Source: Marispirochaeta sp. (lineage in GTDB: Bacteria > Spirochaetota > Spirochaetia > JC444 > Marispirochaetaceae). Taken from it: DNA of 64,000 bases. Numbering within the stretch: the first letter of the stretch is position 1; every line of letters starts with the position of its first letter. The notes under the pieces are model-generated. The model made no database searches. It was not told the DNA's origin and was given only the letters and a program-made list of their open reading frames with translations. The position numbers and the translations under genes were made by a program. The DNA is taken from positions 1,664,001 through 1,728,000 of the forward strand of contig CAXXFF010000002.1 in assembly GCA_963676835.2 (NCBI GenBank), given 5' to 3'. Positions 2-50,784 of this stretch are shown in pieces.

Positions 2-2797
2 GGAGTCTTTTTTCAGAATCTTTATGCCCAGGAAGGTGCAGAACTTCTGTACCGTGAAGGCAGCTCCCGTTTTGAACGCGGTGATTATCAGGGAGCCGCT
101 GAGCGTTATAACGATTTCCTGCGCAGGTTCCCGGGGAATGAACATTATCCCGATGCTCTGTATCGGCTGGGAATTGCAAAGATTAAAACAGAAAAGTACA
201 GCGAAGGCATAGAACTGTTAAAGCGGCTTGAATCCAGATATCCCTCGGGACGATTCCGCTCAAGTTTCTGGATTGCCATGGCTTGCGATAAAACCGGTGA
301 GGAACAGGAAGCCCGTGAATACTGGGACCGATATCTTGAAACCGGCGATACACTCTACAGAAAAGAAGCTCTTCTCTCTTCTGCCTATGCACGGCGGGAT
401 ATGGCAAACATCGGGGAGTCTGAGAAACTGCTTTTAGAACTTCAGGTGCTTAATACCCGCTTTTTTACCACCGCCGGAGGTCTTGAACTTTTAGGTGATC
501 TTTATGCCCGGGAAAATCGCTGGGATGATCTGGCTGCTCTCGGAGCAGATATGCTCTCTAATGGGGAAGATATTCCCCCCCGGTTTATGCTGCGTTACGG
601 GGAATCCCTCAGTACAGTGGGTAACGCGGAAAAAGCCGAGGAGGTGTTTGTCGCCATAACCCTGGGGCCGGGGTCTGAAGTTCAGGCCGCAGCCTACGGC
701 TGGCTTTTTTCTATTTACGAAGAGTCCGGACGTTATCAGGATATGGAGCAGATGATCCTGGATGCAGAAGAGCGTCTGGCCGGAGACAGACAGGCCCTGG
801 CAGGATTCTGGTTCAGAGCCGGAGCTGTTCTTTCGGCGGGTGAAAATCCTGTCAGAGGATTGGGGTATCTCAAGCGGGCATGGGATGCCCGGAGTGAGGC
901 TGATCTTCCCGGTACCCTGCCTGTTTTTTATGCCAGGGCATTGATGGAGTCCGGAGATATTGAAGAGGCAATAGGTATTCTGGAGACAGCCCGAACGGAA
1001 TCCTTTGGTGATCCTGTCCGGCTTGCCTACAATCTGGCAGTACTCAAGGCTACCCGCGGAAACTGGCTGGAGGCGGAAGCCTTGCTGACCCCTTTTGAGG
1101 AAAAACTTTCTCCCGCAGGATCGCTTCTGTTATCCAAAGCCTATATGAATCTTGGTCTGTATACAGCCGGCCTGCATACTGCAGGAGCTGCCATGGAGAG
1201 AGTGAGTTCTTCACAATGGCAGATAGAGCTTCTTAATATTATCTGGCAGCTGCAGGCAACCATGGGACAGTATGACGGGGCAGTAAAAAGTTACGCCCAG
1301 ATGGTCCGCCTTGAAGGTGGTTCTAATGGTGACGAACCGGATCCGAAATATGCCCGGCTGTTATTCAATGCCGGACTGTATGATCAGGTTTTAAGAAAAC
1401 TGCCTGAGGAAAGTTCCGTCCCGGAAATTCAGGCCCTTCGCGGACTCTCGCTTGTCGGGACAGGTCAATATGCTGAAGCCCGTACTCTGCTTCAGGGGCT
1501 TTCATTAAAGGATCTGAGTGATGAGTATGCTGCTCTAACAGATTACTATATCTCCTGGTGCGCATACCGCCTTGGTGATTATAACGCCGCACTCTCGGGT
1601 TTTAATAAATTCCGGCAGCTCCATCCCGATCACAGCAGCGCTCTTGAGGCTGTCTATTTCGGCGGCTGGGCTGCTTTTTCCATGAAGCGCTTTGCTGTCG
1701 CCGCAGAGATGTTCGGAGAGTACCCTCAGAGCGGTCCAAGAATAGGAGATGTTCTTTTTGCCCGTGCCAAAGCTCTTGCCGCCGCAGGAAATGACGGCGA
1801 GGCTCTTCTCCTGGCGGAAAAGTATCTTGCCGGTATGGAAGACAAAGATAAACGGGCGGAAGCTCTCTACCTTATTTTTGAGATTAACCTGGAAAATAGT
1901 GACTTCAGCGGTGCAGAAGAAACCCTTACCCGTTTTGAATCTGAAAATATACGCGGAACCTGGTATTCCCGCAGTCTTTACCGTCTGGGTAAAGCGGAGT
2001 TTGATGCGGAAATGTATCCCGCCAGTGCTGCAAGACTGGACCGGTATAGAAAGCTTTACCCCCGGGGGGATAATGCCGCGGAGGTTCTCTACTACCGGGC
2101 TGAAGCAGCGGTTGCCATGAATGAAGTGCGGCTTGCTCTTCTGCTCTGGGACCGTATGATAAAAGAGTATCCCGACAGCAGGCTGCGGCCGGAAGCGCTC
2201 TCAAGGCGGGCGGGTATTCTTGTCTCGCTGGGTGAGTACCGTGAAGCCCTTAATGCCTATTCGAGCCTGATCGCAGGGTATCCCGCCCGTGCATCTTCCC
2301 TGGGAGCAGGAGAAGAGGTAAAGCGTCTGGAAGCTCTGCTGGTGGCAGCTTCATCCGAATTTGAACGCTTAAGAAAAGAGGCTGCCCGTGCCGGTGGCAC
2401 TGATTCTGTGGAAGGTCGTAATCTGCTCATACAGGCGGTTCACAGCGCCATTGCTGAAGGCAGGGCAGAAGAGTTTACCGAGGCAGACAATGTTGTGCAG
2501 GAACTGATGGAAGTGGAATCGGTGAACAGCCGGGAAAAAAGCAGCATTCTTTTTCTTGCCGGCGAATACCGGTTTCGGCAGAACGAATACAAGCAGGCAG
2601 CGTCTCTCTATCTTGAGGCAGCATCGACCTATACCGCAGACCCCGATTTTACCGCGGAAGCACTCTACCGCTCGGCCCAGATGTCTCTCTATGCGGGAGA
2701 CAGGCTCAGTTATCTCTCTGTCCTTGACAGGTTGAGACAGCGATACCCTGATAGCCCGTGGCTTGAGGCTGCGCAGAAACTGGAGGGACAGCTGTGA
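2..2797 (+). CDS. Large exported TPR-repeat protein (5' truncated by window edge)
   Basis: The frame is open from position 2 (GVFFQNLYAQEGAELLYREG...RRFPGNEHYPDALYRLG) into the ORF-track protein at 278. It has many YfiO/CpoB-like TPR units (e.g. YPDSRLRPEAL, YPRGDNAAEVLYY). LYA-QE looks like a signal peptidase site. Confidence 0.85.
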   Translation, partial: GVFFQNLYAQEGAELLYREGSSRFERGDYQGAAERYNDFLRRFPGNEHYPDALYRLGIAKIKTEKYSEGIELLKRLESRYPSGRFRSSFWIAMACDKTGEEQEAREYWDRYLETGDTLYRKEALLSSAYARRDMANIGESEKLLLELQVLNTRFFTTAGGLELLGDLYARENRWDDLAALGADMLSNGEDIPPRFMLRYGESLSTVGNAEKAEEVFVAITLGPGSEVQAAAYGWLFSIYEESGRYQDMEQMILDAEERLAGDRQALAGFWFRAGAVLSAGENPVRGLGYLKRAWDARSEADLPGTLPVFYARALMESGDIEEAIGILETARTESFGDPVRLAYNLAVLKATRGNWLEAEALLTPFEEKLSPAGSLLLSKAYMNLGLYTAGLHTAGAAMERVSSSQWQIELLNIIWQLQATMGQYDGAVKSYAQMVRLEGGSNGDEPDPKYARLLFNAGLYDQVLRKLPEESSVPEIQALRGLSLVGTGQYAEARTLLQGLSLKDLSDEYAALTDYYISWCAYRLGDYNAALSGFNKFRQLHPDHSSALEAVYFGGWAAFSMKRFAVAAEMFGEYPQSGPRIGDVLFARAKALAAAGNDGEALLLAEKYLAGMEDKDKRAEALYLIFEINLENSDFSGAEETLTRFESENIRGTWYSRSLYRLGKAEFDAEMYPASAARLDRYRKLYPRGDNAAEVLYYRAEAAVAMNEVRLALLLWDRMIKEYPDSRLRPEALSRRAGILVSLGEYREALNAYSSLIAGYPARASSLGAGEEVKRLEALLVAASSEFERLRKEAARAGGTDSVEGRNLLIQAVHSAIAEGRAEEFTEADNVVQELMEVESVNSREKSSILFLAGEYRFRQNEYKQAASLYLEAASTYTADPDFTAEALYRSAQMSLYAGDRLSYLSVLDRLRQRYPDSPWLEAAQKLEGQL

Positions 2798-4377
2798 TGC
2801 GTAAAATACTCCTGGCCTTTGGCTGCTTATGTATACTTTCATTAAGTCTTTATTCCCAGCAGGCAGCACAGGATGAACCCGAAGTGGAACTGCCCGAGCT
2901 GATTCTTCGCTTCGACGGTTCCTATACGGAGGAGCTTCCGCTGCTTGATATCTCCACCGATGAGGTTCTTCAGCCTGGGAAGCTCGAAGATCTGGAGATG
3001 ATTCCCGATATCAGCGCCCGGAACTTTGATCCGGTTCTACCGGTTCCGGATTACCAGACTCTGCCCTATGGTGCCGATGGTGCTCCTCTTTTCGGCAGGG
3101 GCTATATCGGTCTCGGATCGGCAAACTCTCTCTGGGGCGAGGTTGAAATTGCCACCCTGGGAACTGATCCGGGGTTCGGCCTCTCATATGCCCATAAATC
3201 TCTCGATGGTTTCGGTGCGGCAGCTCCCGGTGAAGGTTTTACCGTACGCAGGGAGGAGGCTCGCGGGGAAGCAGACTACTCGCTGCTCGGCGGTTCTTTC
3301 AGCTTTGACGGTACATTTATCGAGGAAGAGCGGGGACTGCAGCAGCAGAGCAGTTTTTCTTCAACCCTCTACCGGGATCTTGGAATACGTCTGGGCTATG
3401 ATTATTCCGCAGAGACCGGCTGGTTCTGGAACGCTGATGCCGCGTTAAGCGGGCTCTATCAGAACCTTTCCGGGATAAGTCCCGAAGATAATACACATAT
3501 GGAGTTCCGTCCCGCTGCCGAAGGTGGATATGCCTGGGATTTCCTGCGGCTTGGTCTCGGGGGTGTATACAACCTCCGCAGCAGCTCCGAAGGGGAGGCC
3601 GGCCAGTTTGCTCAAGCCCTGCTTTCTCTTGAGACGGATATTAACCCAAGTGTAGGGATTGCAGCCGAAGTTGGTGCCGGCTGGAACAGTGACGCCGGTA
3701 TAGGCGTTCCATTTACCCTCAGGGGAACCTTCGGAATCTCCCGCAGCCTTACCATGGAAGCATCGGGAGGTTATTATTTTCATCCCGCTGAATACTCGCC
3801 TCTTTTCGCTGAAAATTCCTTCCTCAGGCTTCCGGATGATTCTCTGGGTGTGGAAAAGGGGTGGGAAGCTGATCTCTCTTTCAGATTCCGCATCGGTACA
3901 GGGAAGTATCTAACCCTTGCCAGCGGTTTTACCAATGGTTCACTGTACCGGCCCTCCTCAATTTACGACCCGGCATCGCATCTGCTTATGGTGGAGCTCC
4001 AGGATACTGCCGAGTTTACTCCCCGGGGCAGACTTGATTTTTCACTGGGAGAAGCATTTTTTGCCGGAATTCAGTCGGAACTGCGATATGATTACCTTGA
4101 GGCAAGTATAGAGGAGGCAGAGGCGGAGTTTTCCCTCCGGACAGATTCTCCCACTGCCCATACCGGCTTCAGTTTTGACGCTGCGGTGGATCTGCTCACC
4201 CTGGACAGTATGCCGGTGCTGGGGGCATCTGCCTGGCTTGAACCGATAGACAGTGTTCGCTTTATTCTGCAGGGGGAAGATTTTCTTGCTCCCCTGGTAA
4301 AGGATGGAAGAATCGATGATTCTGGTCTTGAACTGCCGGGAATCACTCTTCGTCTGGCGGCGGAAATAAGTCTTTAA
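2797..4377 (+). CDS. Putative outer-membrane beta-barrel protein (TonB-receptor-like barrel without an evident plug)
   Basis: Signal peptide, alternating aromatic/Gly beta-strand pattern, and a C-terminal strand (ITLRLAAEISL). The ATG overlaps the upstream TGA. Confidence 0.6.
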   Translation: MRKILLAFGCLCILSLSLYSQQAAQDEPEVELPELILRFDGSYTEELPLLDISTDEVLQPGKLEDLEMIPDISARNFDPVLPVPDYQTLPYGADGAPLFGRGYIGLGSANSLWGEVEIATLGTDPGFGLSYAHKSLDGFGAAAPGEGFTVRREEARGEADYSLLGGSFSFDGTFIEEERGLQQQSSFSSTLYRDLGIRLGYDYSAETGWFWNADAALSGLYQNLSGISPEDNTHMEFRPAAEGGYAWDFLRLGLGGVYNLRSSSEGEAGQFAQALLSLETDINPSVGIAAEVGAGWNSDAGIGVPFTLRGTFGISRSLTMEASGGYYFHPAEYSPLFAENSFLRLPDDSLGVEKGWEADLSFRFRIGTGKYLTLASGFTNGSLYRPSSIYDPASHLLMVELQDTAEFTPRGRLDFSLGEAFFAGIQSELRYDYLEASIEEAEAEFSLRTDSPTAHTGFSFDAAVDLLTLDSMPVLGASAWLEPIDSVRFILQGEDFLAPLVKDGRIDDSGLELPGITLRLAAEISL

Positions 4378-4418
4378 CGCGAATGAATGAGAAGAACGGA
4401 TAAAAGAAGGAATAACGA

Positions 4419-5033
4419 ATGAACAGTTTTATGAGTCTTATGCAGGACGGCGGTCTGATTCTCTGGATAATTATGGCGTTATCCCTGGCTGCGGGGGCAA
4501 TAATTATCGAAAGGATGCTCTTTTTCAGACGCATTCGGGTTGATGAAGAGACTCTTCTGTCCCGCCTAAAGATGACCCTGCAGAAAGGGCATGCCGATGA
4601 AGCCCTCAGCATATGTGAAAGTAACCCTTCACCGTTAACCAACCTGGTTAAAGTGGGAATAGAAAACCGGCACAAAACCACGGGAGAGATTAAAGATCTG
4701 GTTGTAAGTGCAGCTAATCTGGAAATCCCCCAGCTGGAACGCTCTTTGAGCGCTCTGGGCACCATTGCCCATATTGCTCCGCTTCTGGGGCTCCTGGGTA
4801 CGGTAACCGGAAACATAGAGGCCTTTGGTGTCCTCGGTGAGTTTGGTGCTGTTGGCGACCCGGGACTGCTGGCGTCGGGAATTGCAGAGGCCCTGGTTAC
4901 CACTGCAGCGGGACTTATTGTCTCTATTCCTGCTATTGTTTTCTACAACCACCTGGTAAGCCGGGTAAACCATATTATTATCCGCCTGGAAAACCGGGTT
5001 AACGAGCTGGTACTCTTTCTGGGAGAGGTCTGA
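4419..5033 (+). CDS. exbB: MotA/TolQ/ExbB proton channel protein
   Basis: IAPLLGLLGTVTG and GIAEALVTTAAGL motifs. Confidence 0.9.
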   Translation: MNSFMSLMQDGGLILWIIMALSLAAGAIIIERMLFFRRIRVDEETLLSRLKMTLQKGHADEALSICESNPSPLTNLVKVGIENRHKTTGEIKDLVVSAANLEIPQLERSLSALGTIAHIAPLLGLLGTVTGNIEAFGVLGEFGAVGDPGLLASGIAEALVTTAAGLIVSIPAIVFYNHLVSRVNHIIIRLENRVNELVLFLGEV

Positions 5034-5434
5034 TGCAGTTCCGTAGGCGTCTGAAAACCAATGCCACCGTGGATCTGGTTCCCATGATCGATGTTGTGTT
5101 TCAGCTCGTAATTTTCTTCATGGTCTCCACTACCTTCATACTCACTCCCGGGATCAACCTGGCTTTGCCGGAATCCACAACTGCTGAGCCCGTGGCGGCA
5201 GCAAAGATTGTCATAACCGTGGCTTCCGAAGAAGAGGTGTATCTCAACAAGGACAAGGTTGAACTGGAAAGCCTTGTGCCTCTGCTGAAAGAGATGCGGG
5301 GCGGTGCAGAAGAAGGCAGCGTCATTGTTGAAGGAGACCAGCAGGTTTCCTATTCACTGCTTATACGGGTGCTGGATGTACTGCGCTCCGCAGGATTTTC
5401 CGGTGCCAATCTGAGGACCCTGGAGCAGGATTAG
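5033..5434 (+). CDS. exbD: ExbD/TolR biopolymer transport protein
   Basis: LVPMIDVVFQLVIFFMV motif; coupled to exbB. Confidence 0.9.
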   Translation: MQFRRRLKTNATVDLVPMIDVVFQLVIFFMVSTTFILTPGINLALPESTTAEPVAAAKIVITVASEEEVYLNKDKVELESLVPLLKEMRGGAEEGSVIVEGDQQVSYSLLIRVLDVLRSAGFSGANLRTLEQD

Positions 5435-5437
5435 GGC

Positions 5438-6424
5438 ATGACTCATTTGAATGCCGGAGAAAAGGAACGTATCCTCTTTGCCGCCGGAATTTCATTGCTG
5501 CTGCATTTTATTCTGGCAGCTGTGATTATGCTTATGCCCGGCAGCGCAATAAAACCAAGCCGGCCGGACTCACCGCCGATACATGTAGAGTTTGAACCGC
5601 TGGTGCGGACTGCAGAAATCCCGCTGCCCGAACCTCCCCGGGTGGAGGAGAAGATTGAAGAGGTAAGGCCGGAGGTTCCGGTTGACACACACACTGTACA
5701 GCCCAGACCGGTGCCCCAGCCGCAGCGGAACTCGAGTTCCGCCCTGTCTTCTACTGCTCCGGCAGCGCCCGGGCCGTCTGCGGCAGAGGAGTATCCTGCC
5801 TGGACTCCTCCGGAAGTTGAGGATGTTCAAACCAGTTTCAGCTCGGCACCTTCTGTCTCCTCCCAGGGTGGGCGCCAGCTTGACCCTTCCAGTTCATCCG
5901 ATTCGCAGGCTCTGCGGGGGACTACCGACCGCAATACCGGTGCTCTGGATGAGAGCCCCGTTGAAGTCTCCTCTCCATCAGGCAGTGCTGCTGCGGTTAT
6001 AAGTAATAAAGAGCTGGAAAAGCTGGATGAGGCAATCGCCGCCGGTGGATCCGGCAGTACCGGGACCGCCGGAAGTGCCTCCGGAGGGGTTGCCGAAGAA
6101 GAGAATGTAGGCGATATCCGTAATATTGTTTCCAAACTCAGTTATCGCGGGGCTCAGTATGCCGGTCCTCCCGCACCCACTGCGGATGTTGTGCAGGAGC
6201 TGCAGCAATACGGATTAACCACTGTCCCGGTGGAGATTTCCTTCACCATTTCTCCTGCGGGGATAATAACCGACTTGCAAACCTCCGCCGCTTCGATATA
6301 TCCTGCTCTGGACGCCTTTCTGAGGGATGAGCTGCCTGAGGTTCTTACTTTTGAGCCGCTGCCCCGGGAATCCCAGCATATCTGGCAGCAGGTTAATCTG
6401 GAACTGGTGGTCAAATCCAACTGA
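5438..6424 (+). CDS. TonB/TolA-like energy transducer
   Basis: N-terminal TM with SLLLH, Pro/Ser-rich linker, and a C-terminal domain with ISFTISPAGII; follows exbBD. Confidence 0.65.
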   Translation: MTHLNAGEKERILFAAGISLLLHFILAAVIMLMPGSAIKPSRPDSPPIHVEFEPLVRTAEIPLPEPPRVEEKIEEVRPEVPVDTHTVQPRPVPQPQRNSSSALSSTAPAAPGPSAAEEYPAWTPPEVEDVQTSFSSAPSVSSQGGRQLDPSSSSDSQALRGTTDRNTGALDESPVEVSSPSGSAAAVISNKELEKLDEAIAAGGSGSTGTAGSASGGVAEEENVGDIRNIVSKLSYRGAQYAGPPAPTADVVQELQQYGLTTVPVEISFTISPAGIITDLQTSAASIYPALDAFLRDELPEVLTFEPLPRESQHIWQQVNLELVVKSN

Positions 6425-41791: not shown

Positions 41792-42091
41792 ATGTTTGAC
41801 TATGTTAATTTTGAGCAGAAAGACGGAAACCGCAGCGCTGGAAGCCTGAAGCTGTTTGCCTTGTCTACCTGCGGTTTTTGTAAAAAGGCCATGGCTTTTC
41901 TGGAGGAAAACAGCATTTCCTACCAGTACATATATGTGGATTCGGTGGCCGCGGAGATAAAATCCAAAATTAAAGACGAGTTTCAGCAGAAGTTCGATAA
42001 GAAAATGCTTTTTCCGTCGCTGGTTATTGATGACAAGGATTTTCTGGTCGGATTTGTCCGTTATCACTGGCAGAAACTGGTGGATGCATGA
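41792..42091 (+). CDS. Glutaredoxin/NrdH-like protein
   Basis: ALSTCGFC and FPSLVIDD motifs. Confidence 0.85.
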   Translation: MFDYVNFEQKDGNRSAGSLKLFALSTCGFCKKAMAFLEENSISYQYIYVDSVAAEIKSKIKDEFQQKFDKKMLFPSLVIDDKDFLVGFVRYHWQKLVDA

Positions 42092-42432
42092 GCAGCAGTA
42101 AAACCCCGGGAGATACACAGAAGTTTATTAAGGCGGTTGCAGACCATAAAGGCTGGATACTGAACCGTGACAGTGAGTATATCGAGTTTCTTGTTAACGG
42201 ACTGACGGTTAATCATGAACGTTACGGGTTTTACCAGTGTCCCTGCCGTGATTCCTACGGGGATAAGGTAAAGGATAAGGATATCCATTGTCCCTGTGAG
42301 TATGCCGCTGCGGATATACAGGAGTACGGCCAGTGTTTCTGCGGTCTTTTTCTTGATGCGGATTATTACTCAAGCCATGAGGATGTGGACGGAATCCCTG
42401 AGCGCCGTCCGGATGAGCTCTTTCCGGACTAA
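42088..42432 (+). CDS. Ferredoxin:thioredoxin reductase catalytic-subunit family
   Basis: CPCR, CPC and CFCGLF motifs. Confidence 0.88.
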   Translation: MSSSKTPGDTQKFIKAVADHKGWILNRDSEYIEFLVNGLTVNHERYGFYQCPCRDSYGDKVKDKDIHCPCEYAAADIQEYGQCFCGLFLDADYYSSHEDVDGIPERRPDELFPD

Positions 42433-43100
42433 CCGTTTTCGTTGATCAGTTCTATGGTTCCCCGGGAAAGGTTCTTGCGCAGGATTCCTTCATAGAAAAG
42501 ATATCTGCCGTCTCCTGAGCGGAGGAGGTAGAGCCCCTTCCAGAACTTGGCAAGCCAGTTGTTTATGCTTATTTCAACTTCCACGGCTTTTTCCCGTATT
42601 CCGTGAACTGTTATTGTTTTCTCTTCTTTACGAACCGCCCGTAAGGAGCTGAGTTTAAGATTCTGGGGCTGGATGAACCAGAAGGAGCGTTCTGTCTCTT
42701 CCCGGGTAACAAACTCTTCCATACCGAAAGGAAAAATCTGGTGCCAGGGCGAATCATCCTTTATCTGATACTCTTCTGTTTTTGTCCGGCGGCCCTTTTC
42801 CTGTATAAGACTAATCCTGTTTCCGTCTCTTGAGGCTTCTATGTAGAGGTCTTCAGCGTAATTCTGAAAGTACCAGCTTTGAGTATCACCTTCTGCATCC
42901 ACCACAATATGTTCCACACTCAGTACTGTTTCATCCAGGGTCTTTGTGAGGGTGTACTCCTTACGGCCATTGGCTTCGTTAATGGAAAGGGTTAGATCCG
43001 TGCAGTCTCCGTCAAGATTCTCATGGTAGAGAAGGTTGTCCCCGTATAGCAGCGTTCCAAGTGATATAAAAATGAGCAGGATTAAGGAAATCTTAGGCAT
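42429..43100 (-). CDS. Exported hypothetical protein
   Basis: Signal peptide MPKISLILLIF...; start set by the adjacent promoter (ORF track gives 43124). Confidence 0.65.
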   Translation of the reverse strand: MPKISLILLIFISLGTLLYGDNLLYHENLDGDCTDLTLSINEANGRKEYTLTKTLDETVLSVEHIVVDAEGDTQSWYFQNYAEDLYIEASRDGNRISLIQEKGRRTKTEEYQIKDDSPWHQIFPFGMEEFVTREETERSFWFIQPQNLKLSSLRAVRKEEKTITVHGIREKAVEVEISINNWLAKFWKGLYLLRSGDGRYLFYEGILRKNLSRGTIELINENG

Positions 43101-43106
43101 AGGCGT

Positions 43107-43135
43107 ATAGTAAAAGAGGTCCATATAAGTGTCAA
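43107..43135 (-). promoter_or_regulatory. Sigma70 promoter, leaderless geometry
   Basis: TTGACA-N17-TACTAT-N6-ATG. Confidence 0.7.
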
Positions 43136-43194: not shown

Positions 43195-43890
43195 TCATCG
43201 TTCAAGCTTGAAGGTAAAGTCCTTGATGATTTTTATCGCTTTACCGGGAGGCTCGAAGCTCCAGGATGAGATTACCGTGTCGATAACCGTGCGGTCCAGG
43301 ATGGGATATCCGGAAGAGCGCTGAACCTCCACTGCGGTAATGGACCCGTCTTCCGCAATGGAGATAAGGGCCCGGACGGTGCCTTCGTAGCCGAAGCGCC
43401 TGGCAGCATCCGGATATTGGGGTACATCAAGCACCCGGCCCCGGGTAAGGCCCTGCCACGTGATTGGTGCTGCTGCGGGTGACGCTTCGGATGTGCTGTT
43501 GTTCCCTGCGGATGCCTGCATTGTATCTGTTGATTCTGCTGCCGGAGCTTCTGCTGCAACTTTATTCTGTAGAGAAGCATTTTCCGTCAGAGACTGCTGT
43601 TCTGGTTCCGGGTTCTCGGGTTGTGCTGTCTCTGCCGGGGGAGGCTCCGATACAGGCCTTTTTTCTCTCATCGGCTGCTCCGCCTGTTTCGGAACTGCAG
43701 GTGCAGATACCTCCGGCGGCAGTACTCTGAGTTTTATTTCAGGGAACCGTGGTACTTCTATGGCGTTCTGAGGTGACTGCAGCTGTACCAGGATATAAAG
43801 AGTGATGCCTGCTCCATGGAGGAGCAGGGAGAGCGTCCATGCGGTAAGCGAGGTTCTATTCGACAACAAGGTACGGAGTTTGTGGACCAT
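43195..43890 (-). CDS. tonB: Energy transducer TonB
   Basis: SLLLH TM, Pro/Ala-rich linker, and YPDAARRFGYEGTV...SSGYPILD...WSFEP. Confidence 0.9.
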   Translation of the reverse strand: MVHKLRTLLSNRTSLTAWTLSLLLHGAGITLYILVQLQSPQNAIEVPRFPEIKLRVLPPEVSAPAVPKQAEQPMREKRPVSEPPPAETAQPENPEPEQQSLTENASLQNKVAAEAPAAESTDTMQASAGNNSTSEASPAAAPITWQGLTRGRVLDVPQYPDAARRFGYEGTVRALISIAEDGSITAVEVQRSSGYPILDRTVIDTVISSWSFEPPGKAIKIIKDFTFKLER

Positions 43891-44953
43891 CTGATGCGGA
43901 TAAGTCTACCTGACTGTAGCTGTTTTGTGTATCCAGGAGCATTATGGAATCGCCGCCGAAGTTGGCTACCACTAAAAGCCCTGTACTACTGTCATAAACT
44001 GCACCGGCATAAAGGTCCGTCTGGGGGTTCGAGAGAGATTTCAGATGATGGTCTGCAGGCAGGGACGGTGTTGCCGCATCGTAATAGTCCAGGCCGTAGG
44101 TTCCGGTAAGGTAGACAAAGCCTGTGTCAGAGTTATATGCGCCGGTGTTGTATGCAGGTGAACCGCCCACTGCAAGTCTTGTAATTTCGGATATGGAAGC
44201 CGGAGAAGCCGGAGTGGAAATATCCAGAACCAGGATTTCACCATCATCATCGGACTGGCCGCCGCTGAGATAAACATGCAGCTCGTCCGCAGAAGGGAAT
44301 CCCAGGCATGTCTGGGGGTTGCTTCCTGTACCGGTAGCGTAGGAACCAATATAGCTGTAGGGGGAGACTGCGCTGAAAACGGAAACTGACCCATCGCCGA
44401 TGGTACTGCCGGTATTCGCGCTATTACAGATATAGAGATAATCGCCGACTACGGTTCCGTCCTGGGGCCGGTTAAGACTGAAGGCATCATCCTTGAGTGT
44501 CGCAGTAAGCTCCAGGGTTGCGAGGTTTATAACGGAAATTGAATTGTCCACATAGTTCGGCACAAATGCGGTTGTCGGTTCTGATGCGGAACCGGTAATA
44601 ATGGAGTAGGGGTTTTTCCCTGCACCCAAGTAAATGTTATCGGTGTTTTCAAAGGTTGATTCATTAACAACCTGTATAGTGTTGTCTGTGCTGCAGACAA
44701 TAAAGAGCTGGTCGTTGTAGAACAGCATATCATTGGGAACTGCCCCGGTAAGGAAGACGTTGTTGTAAAGGGTTTGTGTATCCGGATGCAGTACTGAGAC
44801 TGTTTCCGCCAGATTGTTGAGAATAAATATTTCGCGGGATTTATCTTCAAAGCTTCTGCTTCCGTATTCAGTCTCGGGGGTGCAGCTTTGAATAAGCGGA
44901 AAGATGATCAGTAGAAGAAGGCTGAGAACAATAAAAGGATTCTTAAAACGCAT
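43856..44953 (-). CDS. YncE-like beta-propeller lipoprotein (BtuG-like position)
   Basis: Lipobox LIQS-C; repeats such as TGAVPNDM, LGAGKNPY, TGTGSNPQ and VGGSP. Confidence 0.7.
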   Translation of the reverse strand: MRFKNPFIVLSLLLLIIFPLIQSCTPETEYGSRSFEDKSREIFILNNLAETVSVLHPDTQTLYNNVFLTGAVPNDMLFYNDQLFIVCSTDNTIQVVNESTFENTDNIYLGAGKNPYSIITGSASEPTTAFVPNYVDNSISVINLATLELTATLKDDAFSLNRPQDGTVVGDYLYICNSANTGSTIGDGSVSVFSAVSPYSYIGSYATGTGSNPQTCLGFPSADELHVYLSGGQSDDDGEILVLDISTPASPASISEITRLAVGGSPAYNTGAYNSDTGFVYLTGTYGLDYYDAATPSLPADHHLKSLSNPQTDLYAGAVYDSSTGLLVVANFGGDSIMLLDTQNSYSQVDLSASDGPQTPYLVVE

Positions 44954-47057
44954 AACGGAGCTCCATGCTGAGTTCTATTCCGGGAACCGGATACTCCCGT
45001 ATATCCACATAGGCGATATTGAAGAGGTTTGTGCCGCTTAACACGAAATCGAGGTTGTCCCTAACCGCAATTGTTGCCGAGGCATCGGTAATAAAACAGG
45101 GATCGTACCATTTGGTGTTGGCAGCGGTTATGTAGCGGAGGCCTATGTAGCGGCCTTCCAGCCGCAGGGAATGCCCTTTCGTTGTTGTCAGGGTTGCGGT
45201 TGAGTTGGCTGTCCATACCGGTTTTCGGGGGATTATCTTGCCGTAGGTGGCGGTGCCTTCGGTACGGTCTTCTGCGTGGAGCCAGGTGCCGTTGGCGGTG
45301 AGTTCAAGGTAGGAATCAATCGCGGGCAGATCCAAAAGGCTGCGTACTTCGGACTCTATGCCCCAGAAGCGGCTGCTGCCGATATTGATGGGCCGCCATT
45401 TGCCGTTGGGGCCGGGGTTCCACTGAATAAGGTTGGTAACTTGACGGTAAAACCCGGCGGCTTCGATCTTTAAAAAAGGCAGGGGCTGCATCAGCACGCC
45501 GCCGTCTGCATACCAGGACTCTTCCGGTTTCAGATCGGGATTGCCCGTGGCAAAGGAGGTGGATGGCCAGAAGAGGTCGTCGAAGGAGGGGGCACGGTAG
45601 GCGGTTCCTCCGCTTGCTTTCAGGGTATATTTCTCGTCCCTGTCCAGAGGGGACAGGATTCCCATTTTCCAGGTTGCCTGAGTCCCTGAGGAGGATTCTG
45701 CTGTTGTATAGCCGTCGATAGCCCAGCTGTCGACTCTGACTGCGGGAAAGAGGGCCAGCCTGCACACATCTGAATCTGCAAAAGGAAAGAACCGCAGCTC
45801 TCCCCGGCTGAAGCCTGCGTTACGGATCCGGGTAACGCCGGAGTCGGAGAACTCGCTGCCCCCGGTATCGGTAAAGGAGGTGGAGTCCAGGGTATCCAGG
45901 CGAAAGCTGTATCCGCTTAAAAGGGATGCGGCCCAGCGTGTAAAGGAGAACTGCTGTTCGTAGCGGCTTTCTCCTTCAAAGGCCAGGTTCTCGTGCCGGT
46001 CGTCTATGGGGCCGAGATAAAAGTCCGGGTCTTCGTATTCCCGCACCTGCCGGGTAAAGCTGAGAGTCCCGGTGATATCTCCCCAGCTGTTGAGCCAGCT
46101 TGTTTCCACTGATCCGGTTTCCCGTTCGTCCGCCATGCGGGCGGTAACCGAGGGAAACTCCACGGTGCCGGGAACGCCTTTGTCGTCGAAATAGACGGAG
46201 GAATCAACTGCGATGTTCAGGTTCTCCAGAGGGGAAACATGCATAGAGGCTGCTGCACCGCCCTGGAGGACATCGGCGTTCTCTCGTTCCAGGGTGCCGA
46301 AGTTCTCATCCTCAAAGCTGTAGTTGCCGTCACTGGTTAAGCCGTGGATGGATAGGCTGCCTCCGAGGGTTTCATCCTGGTTACTGCTGGAAAGAGAAAC
46401 GGACCCGAAAGCGGTGTTCTGGGATGCGTAACCTCCGCGGGCACTGCCGGAGAAAATATCCGGTTCCGGGGATTTTGTTATCACGTTGATAACGCCCCCC
46501 ACGGCATTTTCGCCGTAAACAGCAGAATCCCCGCCGCGGTAGATTTCGATGCGTTCGATGATATCGGGATTGATGGTGGAGAGGTCCGCGCCGCCTCCCT
46601 GGGCGGTGTTGATGCGTTTGCCGTTAAGGAGAACCAGTACCTGTTCCGCTGAAGATCCACGAATAGAGACTAATGCGGATGAACCGGTGCCGCCGTAGCG
46701 GGTAAGGGATACGCCCAGTGCCGGTTCCAGTACCTCCGTCAGGGTCTTCGGGGCTGAGGCTGCAATTTCCTCTGCGGTTATTACCGTCATCTGCCCGGGC
46801 AGGGAACGGGGATCGGGAGCGTCGATGCGGGCTTTGATGATTATTTCCTGGGGCTGTGACGAATCTTCTTCTTCATCGTTTGCTGAAGGGCTCGTCTCAA
46901 GTGTTTCCGTATCGTCAATGATTATAAAGGCTTCTTCCCCGTCGTCGACGATAATGGTTTCCTGGGCGTAGACGGTGCCGGGGACTATAAAAATAGAGAG
47001 AGTAAGAAGTGTAGAAAAAGCCCGGCAGAATAATGTCATTCTTAAATTAATTTCCAA
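44943..47057 (-). CDS. btuB: TonB-dependent receptor, cobalamin (BtuB-like)
   Basis: Plug motifs SIRGSSAEQVLVLLNG and IERIEIYRG..SAVYGENAVGGVINVIT; GNPDLKPE; C-terminal F; downstream of a cobalamin riboswitch. Confidence 0.8.
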   Translation of the reverse strand: MEINLRMTLFCRAFSTLLTLSIFIVPGTVYAQETIIVDDGEEAFIIIDDTETLETSPSANDEEEDSSQPQEIIIKARIDAPDPRSLPGQMTVITAEEIAASAPKTLTEVLEPALGVSLTRYGGTGSSALVSIRGSSAEQVLVLLNGKRINTAQGGGADLSTINPDIIERIEIYRGGDSAVYGENAVGGVINVITKSPEPDIFSGSARGGYASQNTAFGSVSLSSSNQDETLGGSLSIHGLTSDGNYSFEDENFGTLERENADVLQGGAAASMHVSPLENLNIAVDSSVYFDDKGVPGTVEFPSVTARMADERETGSVETSWLNSWGDITGTLSFTRQVREYEDPDFYLGPIDDRHENLAFEGESRYEQQFSFTRWAASLLSGYSFRLDTLDSTSFTDTGGSEFSDSGVTRIRNAGFSRGELRFFPFADSDVCRLALFPAVRVDSWAIDGYTTAESSSGTQATWKMGILSPLDRDEKYTLKASGGTAYRAPSFDDLFWPSTSFATGNPDLKPEESWYADGGVLMQPLPFLKIEAAGFYRQVTNLIQWNPGPNGKWRPINIGSSRFWGIESEVRSLLDLPAIDSYLELTANGTWLHAEDRTEGTATYGKIIPRKPVWTANSTATLTTTKGHSLRLEGRYIGLRYITAANTKWYDPCFITDASATIAVRDNLDFVLSGTNLFNIAYVDIREYPVPGIELSMELRYAF

Positions 47058-47961
47058 TCATGCTGAGATCAACAGCACCGCTGATTTCAGGAGATACTTC
47101 GTTGAGCATTCCTGCAATGAGGAATATTCCGCTCTGGATTTTAATAAAACGGATAGAATCAAGGACTACCGGATTCCCTGAGGAATCAACTGCATCATCA
47201 ATATCAAAACGGTTTGCGCTCCGGTAGGAGGATCCGAAGGGGAGTGCGGCATCCAGATCGGTTCCGCTGTAATTCTCTGCATAGCCTTCGGTAAACAGGC
47301 TGTCATAGTCTACCCAGATGTCATCAGCGTTAAGATACTTGCTGTCCGGCAGTTTTACACCGTTAAGGGTTATTTCGGTGGCACTGCCGTAGCCGTCCCA
47401 CCACCATCCGGCGGATACACTGCTTTCGGGGTATCCGGGGACAAGCTCCACTCCTGTATTGCCCTGGTTGTCTGTCCAGGTGATGTTGGAACTGTCATAG
47501 GCGGGTTGTGAATAGGTAACCTGGTAATCCTGTATGTAGCCTGTTTGGCCGGTTTCGCTGCCCGCAAGTTCGTACCACGGTTCTTCCGGGTCGGGATATC
47601 CGTTGCTGTTGGTATCCTGTTTTACGAAGACAGCAGCCGGTTCATTTCCGGTTCCTGGTTGTGTATAGACAGCAAAATCATACCCAGTGACATTGCTTAT
47701 ATCGTGATCGAAGCCGGCTTCTATAAAACCACCCCAACCGCCGAGCATTACATAGGACGAAGATGTGCCGATGAACTTTGCCATCTGTTCTTCTTTTGTT
47801 CCTATTGTTGAAGCATGCTGTCCTGGACCGTAAGTGTAGTCGTAGACGGTGCTTATGTAGGGAGAATCACCAGAGCTGGAAGAGCTTGCATTTTCGCAGG
47901 AACTTATAACGAGGGGGACGAGAAGAAATAACAGCGGGATGGAAAATGTAAATCTTCGCAT
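47047..47961 (-). CDS. Surface lipoprotein resembling Bacteroidota B12-locus cell-surface proteins
   Basis: Lipobox VISS-C; YTYGPGQH, LGGWGGFIEAGFDHDI.N..GYDF, EP..VFVKQD.N.NG.PD..WYELAGSE and FDIDDAVD..G..V.L..IRFIK motifs. Confidence 0.65.
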   Translation of the reverse strand: MRRFTFSIPLLFLLVPLVISSCENASSSSSGDSPYISTVYDYTYGPGQHASTIGTKEEQMAKFIGTSSSYVMLGGWGGFIEAGFDHDISNVTGYDFAVYTQPGTGNEPAAVFVKQDTNSNGYPDPEEPWYELAGSETGQTGYIQDYQVTYSQPAYDSSNITWTDNQGNTGVELVPGYPESSVSAGWWWDGYGSATEITLNGVKLPDSKYLNADDIWVDYDSLFTEGYAENYSGTDLDAALPFGSSYRSANRFDIDDAVDSSGNPVVLDSIRFIKIQSGIFLIAGMLNEVSPEISGAVDLSMIGN

Positions 47962-48029
47962 AAAAATACCTTTTAAAGCAGATATCCCGACCACCTGCCA
48001 CGGGTACGGGATACCATACTTTTGGAGAG

Positions 48030-49076
48030 TTATTGCCGTTCCGCTCCGTTGGAGCTGTAATCGAAGTAACCGTCTGCATAGGTTACGCTGCTTTCTGCCT
48101 CAGATGCTGTATCAAAAACAGTATTAGGCCAGGTCCCTGCATCAGCCGGGGTTGCATCTTTATATCCCTGGGTAAAATCCATGGTTAGACTGTCGGTTGC
48201 ATTCTGTACCCAGCGAAAAACCTGGTATTTACCTACTTCTCCTGTACCAGTACTATCGACTTCGGTGAACTGGATTACCGCATATCCGGGATCATTGGTG
48301 GAAGATGACTGTCCTGAAAAAGTTGTTTCTGATGCATTGAGTCCGCTATTGGAATAGCTGACAATATCAGCTTTGAAGACTGTTGCGGCACCTGAACCGT
48401 AGTCTGTGGAGTATTCAATTGTGGAATCGGTAATAACCCAGTACTCAGTGCCGTAAGTTCCTGCCAGTTCCCAGGATCCTTCTGCCCGGATAATTTCTTC
48501 AGCACCTTCAGAAGCTGCCCCGAAAAAGCCGTTGGTGTTTGTTACGTTCTGTATAGCTTCTGCAGCTGTGTCATACACTGTGTTTGGCCAGGTCCCCGCA
48601 TCATCCGGGGTGGCATCTTTGTAGCCCTGGGTGAAGTCCTTGTCGGCTGAATCAGACTGGTTCTCCGCCCAGCGAAAAATTTGGTATTTACCTACTTCCC
48701 CGTCTCCTGTCGTAGCAACTTCAGTAAACTGAATTACTGCATAGCCCAGTCCAGTTGTTGAAGAGCTAACAGACGATGTAATTGATGTATCGCCGGCGTT
48801 AAGCCCGGTGTTTGAAAAACTAATAATGTCTGCTTTGTAATTAGTGCTGAACCCTGATCCCCAATCGGATAGATACTCGATGGTGGATTCGGTTATTACC
48901 CATTTCTCAGTTCCATATGCCCCTGTTAATTCCCATATACCTTCGGCTGCTATGGTTGCTGTTGTTCCGCCACCGCTTCCGGCTCCGGTATCCTGACATC
49001 CGCTCAAGAGCGAGACAAAGGCCACCATGGCCACTAACACTGAGATTTTTAAAAACTTTCCTGTAAGGTTTTTCAT
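48030..49076 (-). CDS. Lipoprotein with two tandem ~150-aa domains of unknown family
   Basis: Lipobox LLSG-C27; aa 44-195 and aa 198-348 share GYAVIQFTEV, GEVGKYQ.FRW and DFTQGYKDATP.DAGTWPNTV. Confidence 0.85.
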   Translation of the reverse strand: MKNLTGKFLKISVLVAMVAFVSLLSGCQDTGAGSGGGTTATIAAEGIWELTGAYGTEKWVITESTIEYLSDWGSGFSTNYKADIISFSNTGLNAGDTSITSSVSSSTTGLGYAVIQFTEVATTGDGEVGKYQIFRWAENQSDSADKDFTQGYKDATPDDAGTWPNTVYDTAAEAIQNVTNTNGFFGAASEGAEEIIRAEGSWELAGTYGTEYWVITDSTIEYSTDYGSGAATVFKADIVSYSNSGLNASETTFSGQSSSTNDPGYAVIQFTEVDSTGTGEVGKYQVFRWVQNATDSLTMDFTQGYKDATPADAGTWPNTVFDTASEAESSVTYADGYFDYSSNGAERQ

Positions 49077-49165
49077 GTTTCTTCCCCTTGGGGCAGAAGA
49101 AGCGGGGCTGCGGCGAGCTTGAATTTAACGGCAGGCTGTTCTATTCAGAAGGCATCGCCCATTCC

Positions 49166-49334
49166 GACTTTTTCCGCGAAGTCTAAAAATGGTTTTGTTT
49201 CCGTATCAACGTCTCCTGGCTGACGGATATCATCCGCCGCGCCTTCCCGGGGGTACCCAGTGGCATATGCGGCGGCTTTTCCGATCACAGTGACGGGATC
49301 GCGAAGGATTTGCACCTTCTTCCGTTAAATACAG
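49166..49334 (-). ncRNA. Cobalamin riboswitch
   Basis: Minus strand reads AACGGAAGAAGGTGCAAATCCTTCGCGATCCCGTCACTGTGA...GCCACTGGG...GGGAAGGC...AGCCAGGAGAC. Closing helix CTGTATTTAACG/CGTTGATACGG; downstream hairpin GACTT-CGCGGAAA-AAGTC. Confidence 0.9.
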
Positions 49335-49340
49335 TAAGCA

Positions 49341-49369
49341 ATAGTATCATGGTGAAAGACGGGGAGCAA
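49341..49369 (-). promoter_or_regulatory. Sigma70 promoter of the B12 operon
   Basis: TTGCTC-N17-TACTAT with an extended TG; predicted start near the riboswitch 5' end. Confidence 0.6.
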
Positions 49370-49489: not shown

Positions 49490-50566
49490 TCAGTTCCAAC
49501 TGGGATAGGGGTGGAATGCTTCCCTCAGGAGTGACCCAGAACTGAATGCTGTATGATCGATAGGGCGTTCGACTGTTCCTGTTTCCGGAACATGTTCGCT
49601 CCAGGAGGAGATATCCTGGTCGAAGGCCTCTGTGCCGTAGAACATCCAGCTCATATCTGTAGCACTGTCGGGGCTCCAACCGCCGATATCCTGACTGAAC
49701 TGTTCATTCTGAAAAAACATCTGTTCAAAATCCTCAACCTTAGAAACATCCCAGCTGCCGATATCATGATCGAAGAGGGTATCAGAGAACATGCAGCGCA
49801 TGGTGGTAACTGCCCCGGTTTTCCAGTTGGAGAGATCCTGATCAAAGGCTGATGCCCCGGCAAACATGGCTTCCATGGAGGTTACCTTCTGTACATCCCA
49901 TGCTGAGATATCTCCATTAAAGGTTGATGCTCCGTAGAACATGAAGTACATGTTTTCCACATTACCTACATTCCAGGTTGAGAGATTCTGGTTGAACCCG
50001 CTTACCCCGTCAAACATGAAACCCATGGTGGTGACATTGCTGACGTCCCAGCCGGATATGTCCTGATTGAAGCTGGTATTGCCGACGCAGAGCTGATGCA
50101 TGTTCGTTATTTCCGAGGTGTCCACCCGGGTGACGTCTTCGTCGTTGTTGATCATGGCTTTCAGCTGGTCGAAGTTGACGGTCATTTTCACAACAACGGT
50201 GTAGTCTGAAGTGTCACCGCTTTCAGCGGTGACGGTGTAGATAACATCCCCGGAGAAATTGTTTTCGGTGATGCCGGATTCCTGGGGTGTGAGGCCTACG
50301 GCTGCGCTTTCTCCTGCCAGAGTGAAGGATGCAATAAGGGCTGTATAGTCTGTGCCGTAGGGAACTCTGAGCAGGATGGTTTCGTCGGTGATTGTTCCAA
50401 TTACATCGCCAGACAGTTCCGATGGGTTGTCGGCAGCGGTAAAAGTGAAGGCTGTTATTGCGGATGAGCTTGATGGACCGGGAGTCGCTCCGGTACCTGC
50501 CTCCTCGCAGCTGGTCACCAGCAATAGTGTTGCTAAAACTGATAGTAGAGATATGATTTTTTTCAT
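49490..50566 (-). CDS. BspA/DUF285-type repeat surface lipoprotein with N-terminal Ig/cadherin-like domain
   Basis: Lipobox LVTS-C; YTVTAESG..DYTVVV; about six 25-aa repeats of the type FNQDISGWDVSNVTTMGFMF. Confidence 0.85.
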   Translation of the reverse strand: MKKIISLLSVLATLLLVTSCEEAGTGATPGPSSSSAITAFTFTAADNPSELSGDVIGTITDETILLRVPYGTDYTALIASFTLAGESAAVGLTPQESGITENNFSGDVIYTVTAESGDTSDYTVVVKMTVNFDQLKAMINNDEDVTRVDTSEITNMHQLCVGNTSFNQDISGWDVSNVTTMGFMFDGVSGFNQNLSTWNVGNVENMYFMFYGASTFNGDISAWDVQKVTSMEAMFAGASAFDQDLSNWKTGAVTTMRCMFSDTLFDHDIGSWDVSKVEDFEQMFFQNEQFSQDIGGWSPDSATDMSWMFYGTEAFDQDISSWSEHVPETGTVERPIDHTAFSSGSLLREAFHPYPSWN

Positions 50567-50685: not shown

Positions 50686-50784
50686 GCGTTACGGATTGGA
50701 GGGGCGCCGGCAGGCGGTGCGGAGCACGGGACCCCCGCAAAGCCGGACCGCTGACGCTCCGGAGGGGCGGCAGGGGTAACGCCC
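50686..50784 (+). ncRNA. GC-rich structured intergenic element, Flavo-1-like
   Basis: CGG-ATTGGA-GGGG...CCCC-CGCAAAG-CCGGACC...GGGGTAACGCCC, with outer pairing GCGTTAC/GTAACGC. Confidence 0.4.

Follow-up and report, generated by a model that had tools for sequence, protein, structure and literature searches.

A cobalamin-riboswitch operon of Marispirochaeta sp. probably encodes a Bacteroides-type, lipoprotein-assisted outer-membrane importer of vitamin B12

Introduction

Lipoprotein-assisted uptake of vitamin B12 (cobalamin) through an outer-membrane TonB-dependent receptor is characterised in Bacteroides thetaiotaomicron, and the literature keeps it close to Bacteroidota. Lipoprotein-capped receptors are described as seemingly exclusive to Bacteroidetes (PMC10404256), a BLASTP search found no homologue of the lid protein BtuG outside that group (PMC6143338), and a preprint reports receptor-lid pairs almost wholly from Bacteroidota, a single exception apart (10.1101/2023.03.17.533168). 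For the B12-binding lipoprotein BtuH, a 2026 review lists three Firmicutes only as carriers outside Bacteroidota (PMC13616437). In Spirochaetota, homologues of BtuJ are reported to occur, and Leptospira is reported to have a riboswitch-led btuB. Here we describe a minus-strand operon of the free-living spirochaete Marispirochaeta sp., located in a stretch of 64,000 nucleotides (GenBank assembly GCA_963676835.2, contig CAXXFF010000002.1, positions 1,664,001 to 1,728,000) that we call the window and whose own positions are used throughout. Under a cobalamin riboswitch, this operon encodes a tandem-domain lipoprotein that we name LP1, a BtuH-type lipoprotein, a BtuB-like receptor, a BtuG-like propeller lipoprotein and TonB (Table 1). 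A literature search that reached few subscription journals and no supplementary homologue tables yielded no account of such an operon or of a B12-binding lipocalin. The function class is known; new, as far as searched, are its phylum, its lipocalin-like component and the probable replacement of a lid-less unit at the same site.

Results

Organisation of the operon and its leader

That the operon serves B12 uptake is, in our view, close to certain. A first-pass annotation, made from the letters of the sequence, had read a promoter, a cobalamin riboswitch, a tandem-domain lipoprotein, a second lipoprotein, a receptor, a propeller and TonB in this order on the minus strand. Open reading frames and domain matches agree with this gene order; the covariance match to the riboswitch lies well above the gathering cut-off of 31.5 bits and is the sole Rfam match within the window; and the first lipoprotein indeed consists of two repeats that are 65% identical. 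The three lipoproteins have hydrophobic leaders ending in LSGC, ISSC and IQSC, motifs that were read by eye. The same annotation took the last four genes to overlap, which stands for the receptor and propeller genes (11 nt) and for the propeller and tonB genes (35 nt); the second lipoprotein gene overlaps the receptor gene with the TTG start only, the ATG start leaving a 7-nt gap. Its promoter can also be read upstream of the aptamer, and stays a candidate: a consensus promoter scan did not have it among its sites, that scan being itself at chance level (8 sites against 8.6 expected).

The leader between aptamer and LP1 holds a hairpin predicted to cover the Shine-Dalgarno sequence of LP1 with a folding energy of -9.0 kcal/mol. 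In the whole leader, the predicted probability that the Shine-Dalgarno sequence is unpaired is 0.45-0.47, against 0.19 in a fold without the sequence up to P13; this predicted drop in accessibility suggests that the riboswitch controls the translation of LP1. A sequence scan of the leader found no terminator-like site.

Table 1. Positions in the window of the operon, its parts and other features named in the text.
Feature	Position	Strand	Remarks
Cobalamin-riboswitch operon (riboswitch, LP1, BtuH domain, receptor, propeller, TonB)	49323..43195	-	
Candidate promoter	49369-49341	-	TTGCTC-17 nt-TG.TACTAT; read from the sequence, unproven
Cobalamin riboswitch aptamer (RF00174)	49323-49211	-	80.2 bits, E 3.9e-18
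Expression platform	49210-49077	-	P13-like hairpin 49183-49166 and hairpin covering the LP1 Shine-Dalgarno sequence
LP1	49076-48030	-	348 aa; lipobox-like LSGC, Cys27
LP1 domains 1 and 2	48956-48492 and 48491-48030	-	about 155 aa each, tandem
Second lipoprotein (stand-alone BtuH-type B12-binding domain)	47961-47047	-	304 aa; ISSC, Cys22
BtuB-like TonB-dependent receptor	47039 (ATG) or 47057 (TTG) to 44943	-	
BtuG-like beta-propeller lipoprotein, predicted receptor lid	44953-43856	-	365 aa; IQSC, Cys24
TonB	43890-43195	-	TonB_C 60 bits
Putatively swapped segment	43114-50685		alignment with the flanks in congener G402 ends at 43113 (82% identity) and resumes at 50686 (88%)
DUF285/PARCEL-repeat lipoprotein	49490-50566	-	PF03382, E 1.5e-78; located 5' of the riboswitch and within the putatively swapped segment
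ExbB/TolQ-like and ExbD/TolR-like genes	4419-5434	+	only non-MotA-sized MotA_ExbB match in the genome

The second lipoprotein carries a BtuH-type domain

The proposal of the first-pass annotation that B12 is captured as in Bacteroides is supported by three components, the first being the second lipoprotein. Its residues 23-301 matched the B12-binding domain of BtuH2 (7BIZ) with an E-value of 7.4e-30, and it also matched the H domain of BtuG1 (8BLW_B; E 2.5e-26). The contacts named in PMC13616437 and PMC8941943 were located by hand on the 7BIZ alignment (offset +100): among 14 named BtuH2 residues, six are identical, three conservatively replaced and five changed in the window protein. The two-metal site, which grips the nucleotide loop, is kept, with E406, E584, D522, N399 and S582 corresponding to E, E, E, Q and S (three identical, two conservative). 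The corrin and nucleotide contacts Q333, Y475 and L578 are identical, and Y510 is replaced by W. The closest named relatives outside spirochaetes come from Rapidithrix and Limibacter (Bacteroidota; 51-52% identity).

At other loci (L numbers), short divergent BtuH-like lipoproteins fill the BtuH slot (L004:10486-11256, L005, L007, L012, L029, L030, L033, L075, L076, L087). In seven of them (L004, L005, L007, L012, L029, L030 and L033) the BtuH match spans 74 columns only, with a probability of 90.9, and no PDB sequence was matched; the family is a candidate for a second B12 binder. Two cobalamin riboswitches were seen at L073:289-7526: the first leads a 635-aa BtuH-domain protein, the second large lipoproteins, namely an FG-GAP-like repeat protein and an Fn3/FGE-sulfatase-like one (labels given by eye), with no receptor in the 8 kb covered. 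A degenerate BtuF-like gene, likewise recognised by eye, stands between BtuH and receptor at L009:9780-10562 and L014:11490-12419; the L009 protein had no Pfam match.

The receptor and propeller resemble BtuB and BtuG

The receptor has a plug and a barrel that both score above the Pfam cut-offs, and it is the only plug-domain protein and TonB-dependent receptor of the genome. A profile built from 13 spirochaete receptors had as its best PDB match BtuB1 of B. thetaiotaomicron (E 1.2e-58, columns 4-638, full length). The ten top rows were all BtuB proteins, ahead of the iron and heme receptors with which, by the first-pass annotation, the receptor might have clustered instead.

In the Bacteroides system, loop 8 of the receptor is reported to free the vitamin from its BtuG lid, the ligand being contacted by Tyr538 in BtuB3, a position taken by Trp in BtuB1 and by Phe in BtuB2 (PMC10404256). 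The window receptor aligns ungapped to loop 8 of BtuB3 and has Trp at Tyr538, a position found by counting on the 8P98 alignment, to which the loop-tip numbering of PMC10404256 is not an exact match. This Trp is invariant in 13/13 aligned spirochaete receptors. Among 27 spirochaete receptors, all 18 with a nearby propeller gene have the loop-8 aromatic (17 Trp, 1 Tyr), and none of five riboswitch-led, lid-less receptors from congeners has it. The L075 receptor also lacks a loop-8 aromatic.

For the propeller, a profile search reached BtuG1 at E 5.5e-12 and BtuG2/3 at E 5e-5 to 5e-4. Its model, with a predicted local distance difference test score (pLDDT) of 92.8, is seven-bladed, aligns over its full length to BtuG chains with TM scores of 0.73-0.78, and is best or joint-best with BtuG. 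Given its position and fold, the protein is likely BtuG-like and a putative member of the BtuG family, and we consider it probable that it acts as the lid of the receptor.

LP1 is predicted to carry an unnamed lipocalin-like domain in tandem

LP1 corresponds to the extra, unrecognised component of the first-pass annotation. Neither Pfam, NCBIfam nor the PDB sequences yielded a family match, and matches to CEACAM in the PDB sequence search were rejected as noise (E above 0.2). A profile of the LP1 domain retrieved 121 clusters among 1.84 billion representatives; 68 of these 121 members were scanned and none had a Pfam match over the domain, nor did the window protein, the DUF4465 model of BtuJ being among those without a match. 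Ig, PKD or cadherin-like stalks precede the domain in several members, tandem domains occur in 6/128 proteins, and a lipobox-like Cys, searched with a loose pattern, is present in 106 of 126 proteins with a Met start. All members with an organism name are spirochaetal, most members being without one, and 14/14 titled loci belong to Spirochaetota. The assignment of the window to spirochaetes agrees with this: genome G411, placed in the same class as the window genome, has a locus that over 15,430 nt is identical to L014, whose record is titled Spirochaetia. Within that phylum LP1 is rare (8/401 sampled genomes, including that of the window), and a search of 72,556 plasmids gave 0 matches.

The AlphaFold2 model of the domain has a pLDDT of 94. 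Its closest solved folds are Tp0751 (Z 9.2, root-mean-square deviation 3.1 A, 100 residues aligned) and BACOVA_00364 (Z 8.2, 3.2 A, 105 aligned), which are modest scores; most of the top fold-match rows are lipocalin-like barrels. Foldseek returned nothing at E 0.001 or better. No BtuJ, BtuK or HmuY chain stood in the fold lists, which leave room for families not listed. No Pfam lipocalin model matched LP1, and a lead to Lipocalin_4 came as a feature score of 0.77 only. The domains also share an N-terminal G-x-W, which we take to be the signature motif of lipocalins and calycins (the G stands in 100% of 118 aligned domains, the W in 98% of 119). N54, R95, W96 and F145, in profile numbering, are nearly invariant as well. 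Taken together, LP1 is predicted to be a tandem of lipocalin-like domains that belong to no named family.

LP1 genes follow cobalamin riboswitches

LP1 loci were collected by protein search alone and riboswitches were scored afterwards. All 14 genome loci have a cobalamin riboswitch ahead of the LP1 domain, at a distance of 208-681 nt. Of the eight LP1 regions in the phylum sample, six carry a riboswitch over the cut-off, a seventh has a sub-threshold match to the adenosylcobalamin (AdoCbl) riboswitch (46.5 against 50 bits, E 7e-7), and the eighth stops at a contig edge; at L033 and L034, an additional gene separates riboswitch and LP1. Two of six metagenome loci were new, both with a riboswitch, the other four being duplicates of earlier loci, and L069, found via BtuH, is one further riboswitch-led LP1 locus. 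Over all sets, LP1 stands in a cobalamin-riboswitch-led unit at 23 of the 24 non-redundant loci with upstream DNA, the remaining one being the sub-threshold case and the window not counted. L067 stands outside this count, its upstream DNA being missing and its LP1 match weak (78.4), and the first gene of L076 was rejected as LP1 (probability 1.9).

The gene after LP1 in the 14 genome loci encodes a BtuH domain in nine and a short BtuH-like protein in four, and is off the contig in one. Receptor and propeller follow LP1 in 10/10 loci that reach that far, with the propeller gene directly 3' of the receptor gene. In P0033, an LP1 domain is naturally fused to a BtuH domain, the latter 45% identical to that of the window. 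P0017 and an L068 protein have 116 of 118 N-terminal residues in common and then continue with an LP1 or a BtuH head, respectively, a difference most simply explained by a deletion or an assembly collapse.

Some loci depart from the window layout. At L029:5728-11042 and L030:4752-9993, the order is riboswitch, LP1, short BtuH-like gene, tonB and btuFCD, with no receptor in the operon. At L034:534-3283, the riboswitch is followed by receptor and LP1, there is no propeller gene, and LP1, in the usual btuG position, might serve as receptor lid. A small predicted outer-membrane barrel gene comes first after the riboswitch, in LP1's place, at L070:243-800, and a further TonB-dependent receptor match lies upstream of the LP1 riboswitch at L003:7552-7893.

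The operon occupies a slot that holds a lid-less unit in congeners

The operon lies in a segment of 7.6 kb that corresponds to about 3.2 kb in congener G402 at the same slot. In 5/5 congeners, a unit of riboswitch, receptor and tonB stands there on the opposite strand, between the same gene for a 231-aa protein and prfC (85-97% identical). BtuH is found in none of the five congeners, and lipoprotein genes are also lacking from their slot unit. Four of the five congener receptors gave a match to that of the window, at 24-36% identity in local alignments. A quick receptor tree joins the window receptor to that of G210, which belongs to another family (SH-aLRT, the approximate likelihood ratio test, 99). 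It unites four congener receptors in a separate clade (100), and the G404 receptor is different again. The cassette junctions showed neither a repeat nor a second genomic copy. On these comparisons, parsimony favours a gain by replacement in the window lineage; B12 loci of Bacteroidetes are known to move (PMC8759732). Between tonB and prfC, three of the five congeners have a gene of about 480 aa (L078:14859-16310, L079:14166-15593, L081:13843-15279).

Two neighbours were considered as operon members and rejected. The 231-aa gene after tonB (43124-42429, minus strand) has its own promoter-like site at 43135-43107 and is kept in the five congeners, where it is divergent from the receptor gene. 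Its product (42429-43124) is conserved and exported, has no family match, and has a paralogue at G000:C2:1203679-1204296. The DUF285 lipoprotein gene has no match in the 14 LP1 loci, which speaks against it as a core member, and is probably a passenger. At 41792-42432 on the plus strand, two overlapping genes with CGFC and CPC/CPC/CFC motifs are kept in congeners; presumably they encode a glutaredoxin-like protein and a protein like the catalytic subunit of ferredoxin-thioredoxin reductase.

Functions supplied in trans

The operon contains neither btuFCD nor exbBD; the first-pass annotation had expected both to be supplied from outside it, and candidates for both were located. On another contig, btuF-btuC-btuD stands under a second cobalamin riboswitch (75 bits). 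The ExbB/TolQ-like and ExbD/TolR-like genes of the window, all of whose scores are below equivalog cut-offs, are likely the motor for the operon TonB, the only TonB_C match in the genome. They belong to a plus-strand cluster at 278-6424 that comprises a TPR protein, a protein predicted to resemble an outer-membrane barrel (2794-4377, no Pfam match), ExbB/TolQ, ExbD/TolR and a proline-rich TonB/TolA-like protein (5438-6424, no family match). This cluster might form an envelope motor of its own and share its ExbBD with the B12 TonB.

The genome, which is 97% complete, has seven B12-binding-domain matches, one of which is a MetH-like protein of 1130 aa, and MetE, CbiC and CobS were not found in it. 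The organism thus resembles an obligate cobamide scavenger whose sole energised outer-membrane importer would be encoded by this operon.

Discussion

We propose that the riboswitch-led operon builds an outer-membrane B12 importer assisted by lipoproteins as in Bacteroides, and that it was gained by replacing a bare receptor-TonB unit; we hold this to be probable. When B12 is scarce, the riboswitch would expose the ribosome-binding site of LP1. The two predicted lipocalin-like barrels of LP1 and the BtuH domain would catch cobamides outside the receptor and hand them to the propeller, a BtuG-like lid. Loop 8, via its conserved Trp, would then push the vitamin off the lid into the barrel; the operon TonB, powered by ExbBD (4.4-5.4 kb in the window), would open the plug; and the separately riboswitch-controlled BtuFCD would move B12 to the cytoplasm for MetH.

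Several observations weigh against parts of this proposal. The receptor is far under the NCBIfam cut-offs for BtuB (164.6 against 599.7 bits for TIGR01779 and 119.2 against 836 for NF007926). The propeller alone finds no BtuG with phmmer; the archaeal YVTN propeller 1L0Q is first by E-value in both profile and model searches, BtuG1 being second with the profile; and the fold Z-scores are nearly tied (BtuG2 33.2, 1L0Q 32.7, a lactonase 32.6). Five of the 14 BtuH2 contacts, F334, F401, H476, W511 and W577, are changed in the window protein, the last of them being kept in 4/7 relatives. As for loop 8, the L034 receptor has the Trp in a locus with no propeller gene, two receptors without riboswitch carry Tyr in a longer loop 8, and the counts come from related sequences, not independent events. 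The receptor tree bearing on replacement was quick, rooted at midpoint and made without a clade test. Finally, LP1 is missing from four riboswitch loci anchored on BtuH (L068, L070, L072, L074), and in B. thetaiotaomicron two lipoproteins encoded in B12 operons, BtuL and BtuK2, lack B12 binding (PMC12751083).

This last point bears on the role of LP1, because with such non-binders in B12 operons the linkage to riboswitches is no proof of binding. We lean slightly towards LP1 itself binding a cobamide. Its strongest competitor, which we find less convincing and still a real contender, is that the operon imports B12 while LP1 is a scaffold, or a vesicle or export accessory, like the riboswitch-controlled BtuL and BtuK2. 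LP1 is unlike any solved B12 binder, it is absent from several loci that look complete, and numerous spirochaete lipocalin-like lipoproteins appear among its structure neighbours. Against a non-binding role speak the fusion to BtuH in P0033, the tandem duplications and the display at the tip of Ig or PKD stalks as in BtuH2, which are typical of ligand-catching heads, and the place of LP1 under a riboswitch even where neither receptor nor propeller comes after it (L029, L030). In addition, Tp0751, whose solved fold comes nearest, is a tetrapyrrole binder that takes up heme at its barrel (Kd 11.7 uM; PMC7521688).

It is unlikely, in our judgement, that the lipoproteins instead stay periplasmic and work downstream of the receptor, buffering B12 or ferrying it to BtuF, with a receptor as lid-less as E. 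coli BtuB. Many spirochaete lipoproteins are periplasmic, as was argued for Tp0751 (PMC7521688), monoderm Firmicutes have BtuH homologues (PMC13616437), and LP1 with a short BtuH-like gene leads tonB-btuFCD at the two loci whose operon has no receptor. Yet the loop-8 aromatic, which is extracellular, tracks the propeller gene, and this gene follows the receptor gene directly, as btuG does, in every LP1 locus reaching it. That the cassette imports another metal-tetrapyrrole or a cobalt complex and is merely regulated by B12 is very improbable: heme and siderophore receptor models do match the receptor, with 149 and 113 bits, and the nearest solved LP1 fold binds heme, but the BtuH homology, the first rank of BtuB among receptors, the failure to find in the genome a corrin-ring synthesis marker needing cobalt and the lack of any other receptor all contradict it.

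Returning to import through a lidded receptor, we offer a bolder version tentatively, as one that we would sooner doubt than back: LP1 would be the first cobamide binder with a lipocalin fold, a spirochaete invention in a lidded importer derived from Bacteroidota, and the mobile cassette would overwrite lid-less btuB units. If so, lidded receptors would be a portable upgrade and not a peculiarity of Bacteroidota. A complete H-B-G set in spirochaetes, with loop 8 tracking the lid gene, challenges the view that such receptors belong to Bacteroidota only. It also raises the question of how spirochaetes place such lipoproteins on the surface; for Bacteroidota, a lipoprotein export signal after the Cys is described in PMC6143338. 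LP1, being small and modelled with confidence, is a candidate for a new fold that binds B12, and lidded and lid-less receptors at one locus in close relatives provide a natural experiment on the worth of the lid at low B12.

Among known systems, the minimal type is the riboswitch-btuB arrangement of E. coli and Leptospira, which corresponds to the unit of the congeners and has no surface lipoproteins; loop 8 of E. coli BtuB is shorter than that of the window receptor. LP1 resembles the barrel lipoproteins Tp0751 of Treponema pallidum (PDB 5JK2) and BACOVA_00364 (PDB 4GZV) at 8-9% identity, but it is strongly acidic and riboswitch-linked, and no B12 link is reported for them in the literature searched. 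The BtuH protein has the stand-alone architecture of BtuH1 (BT1488), whereas BtuH2 (BT1956, PDB 7BIZ) has a PKD stalk that the window protein lacks. The Bacteroides counterparts of receptor and propeller are the BtuB-BtuG complexes 8BLW, 8BMX and 8P97/8P98, the propeller being 13-17% identical to BtuG in structural alignments. The order BtuH, BtuB, BtuG-like is the same as in BT1488-1490 of B. thetaiotaomicron (table in PMC12751083). The closest system is the Btu relay locus 1 of that species (btuK1-K2-H1-B1-GH-J1), which also has a riboswitch, lipoprotein signals, the loop-8 aromatic and btuFCD partly in trans. In contrast to locus 1, the operon described here belongs to Spirochaetota, begins with a lipocalin-like gene instead of BtuK (PKD and propeller) or BtuJ (jelly-roll), and has a dedicated tonB beside the sole TonB-dependent receptor of its genome.

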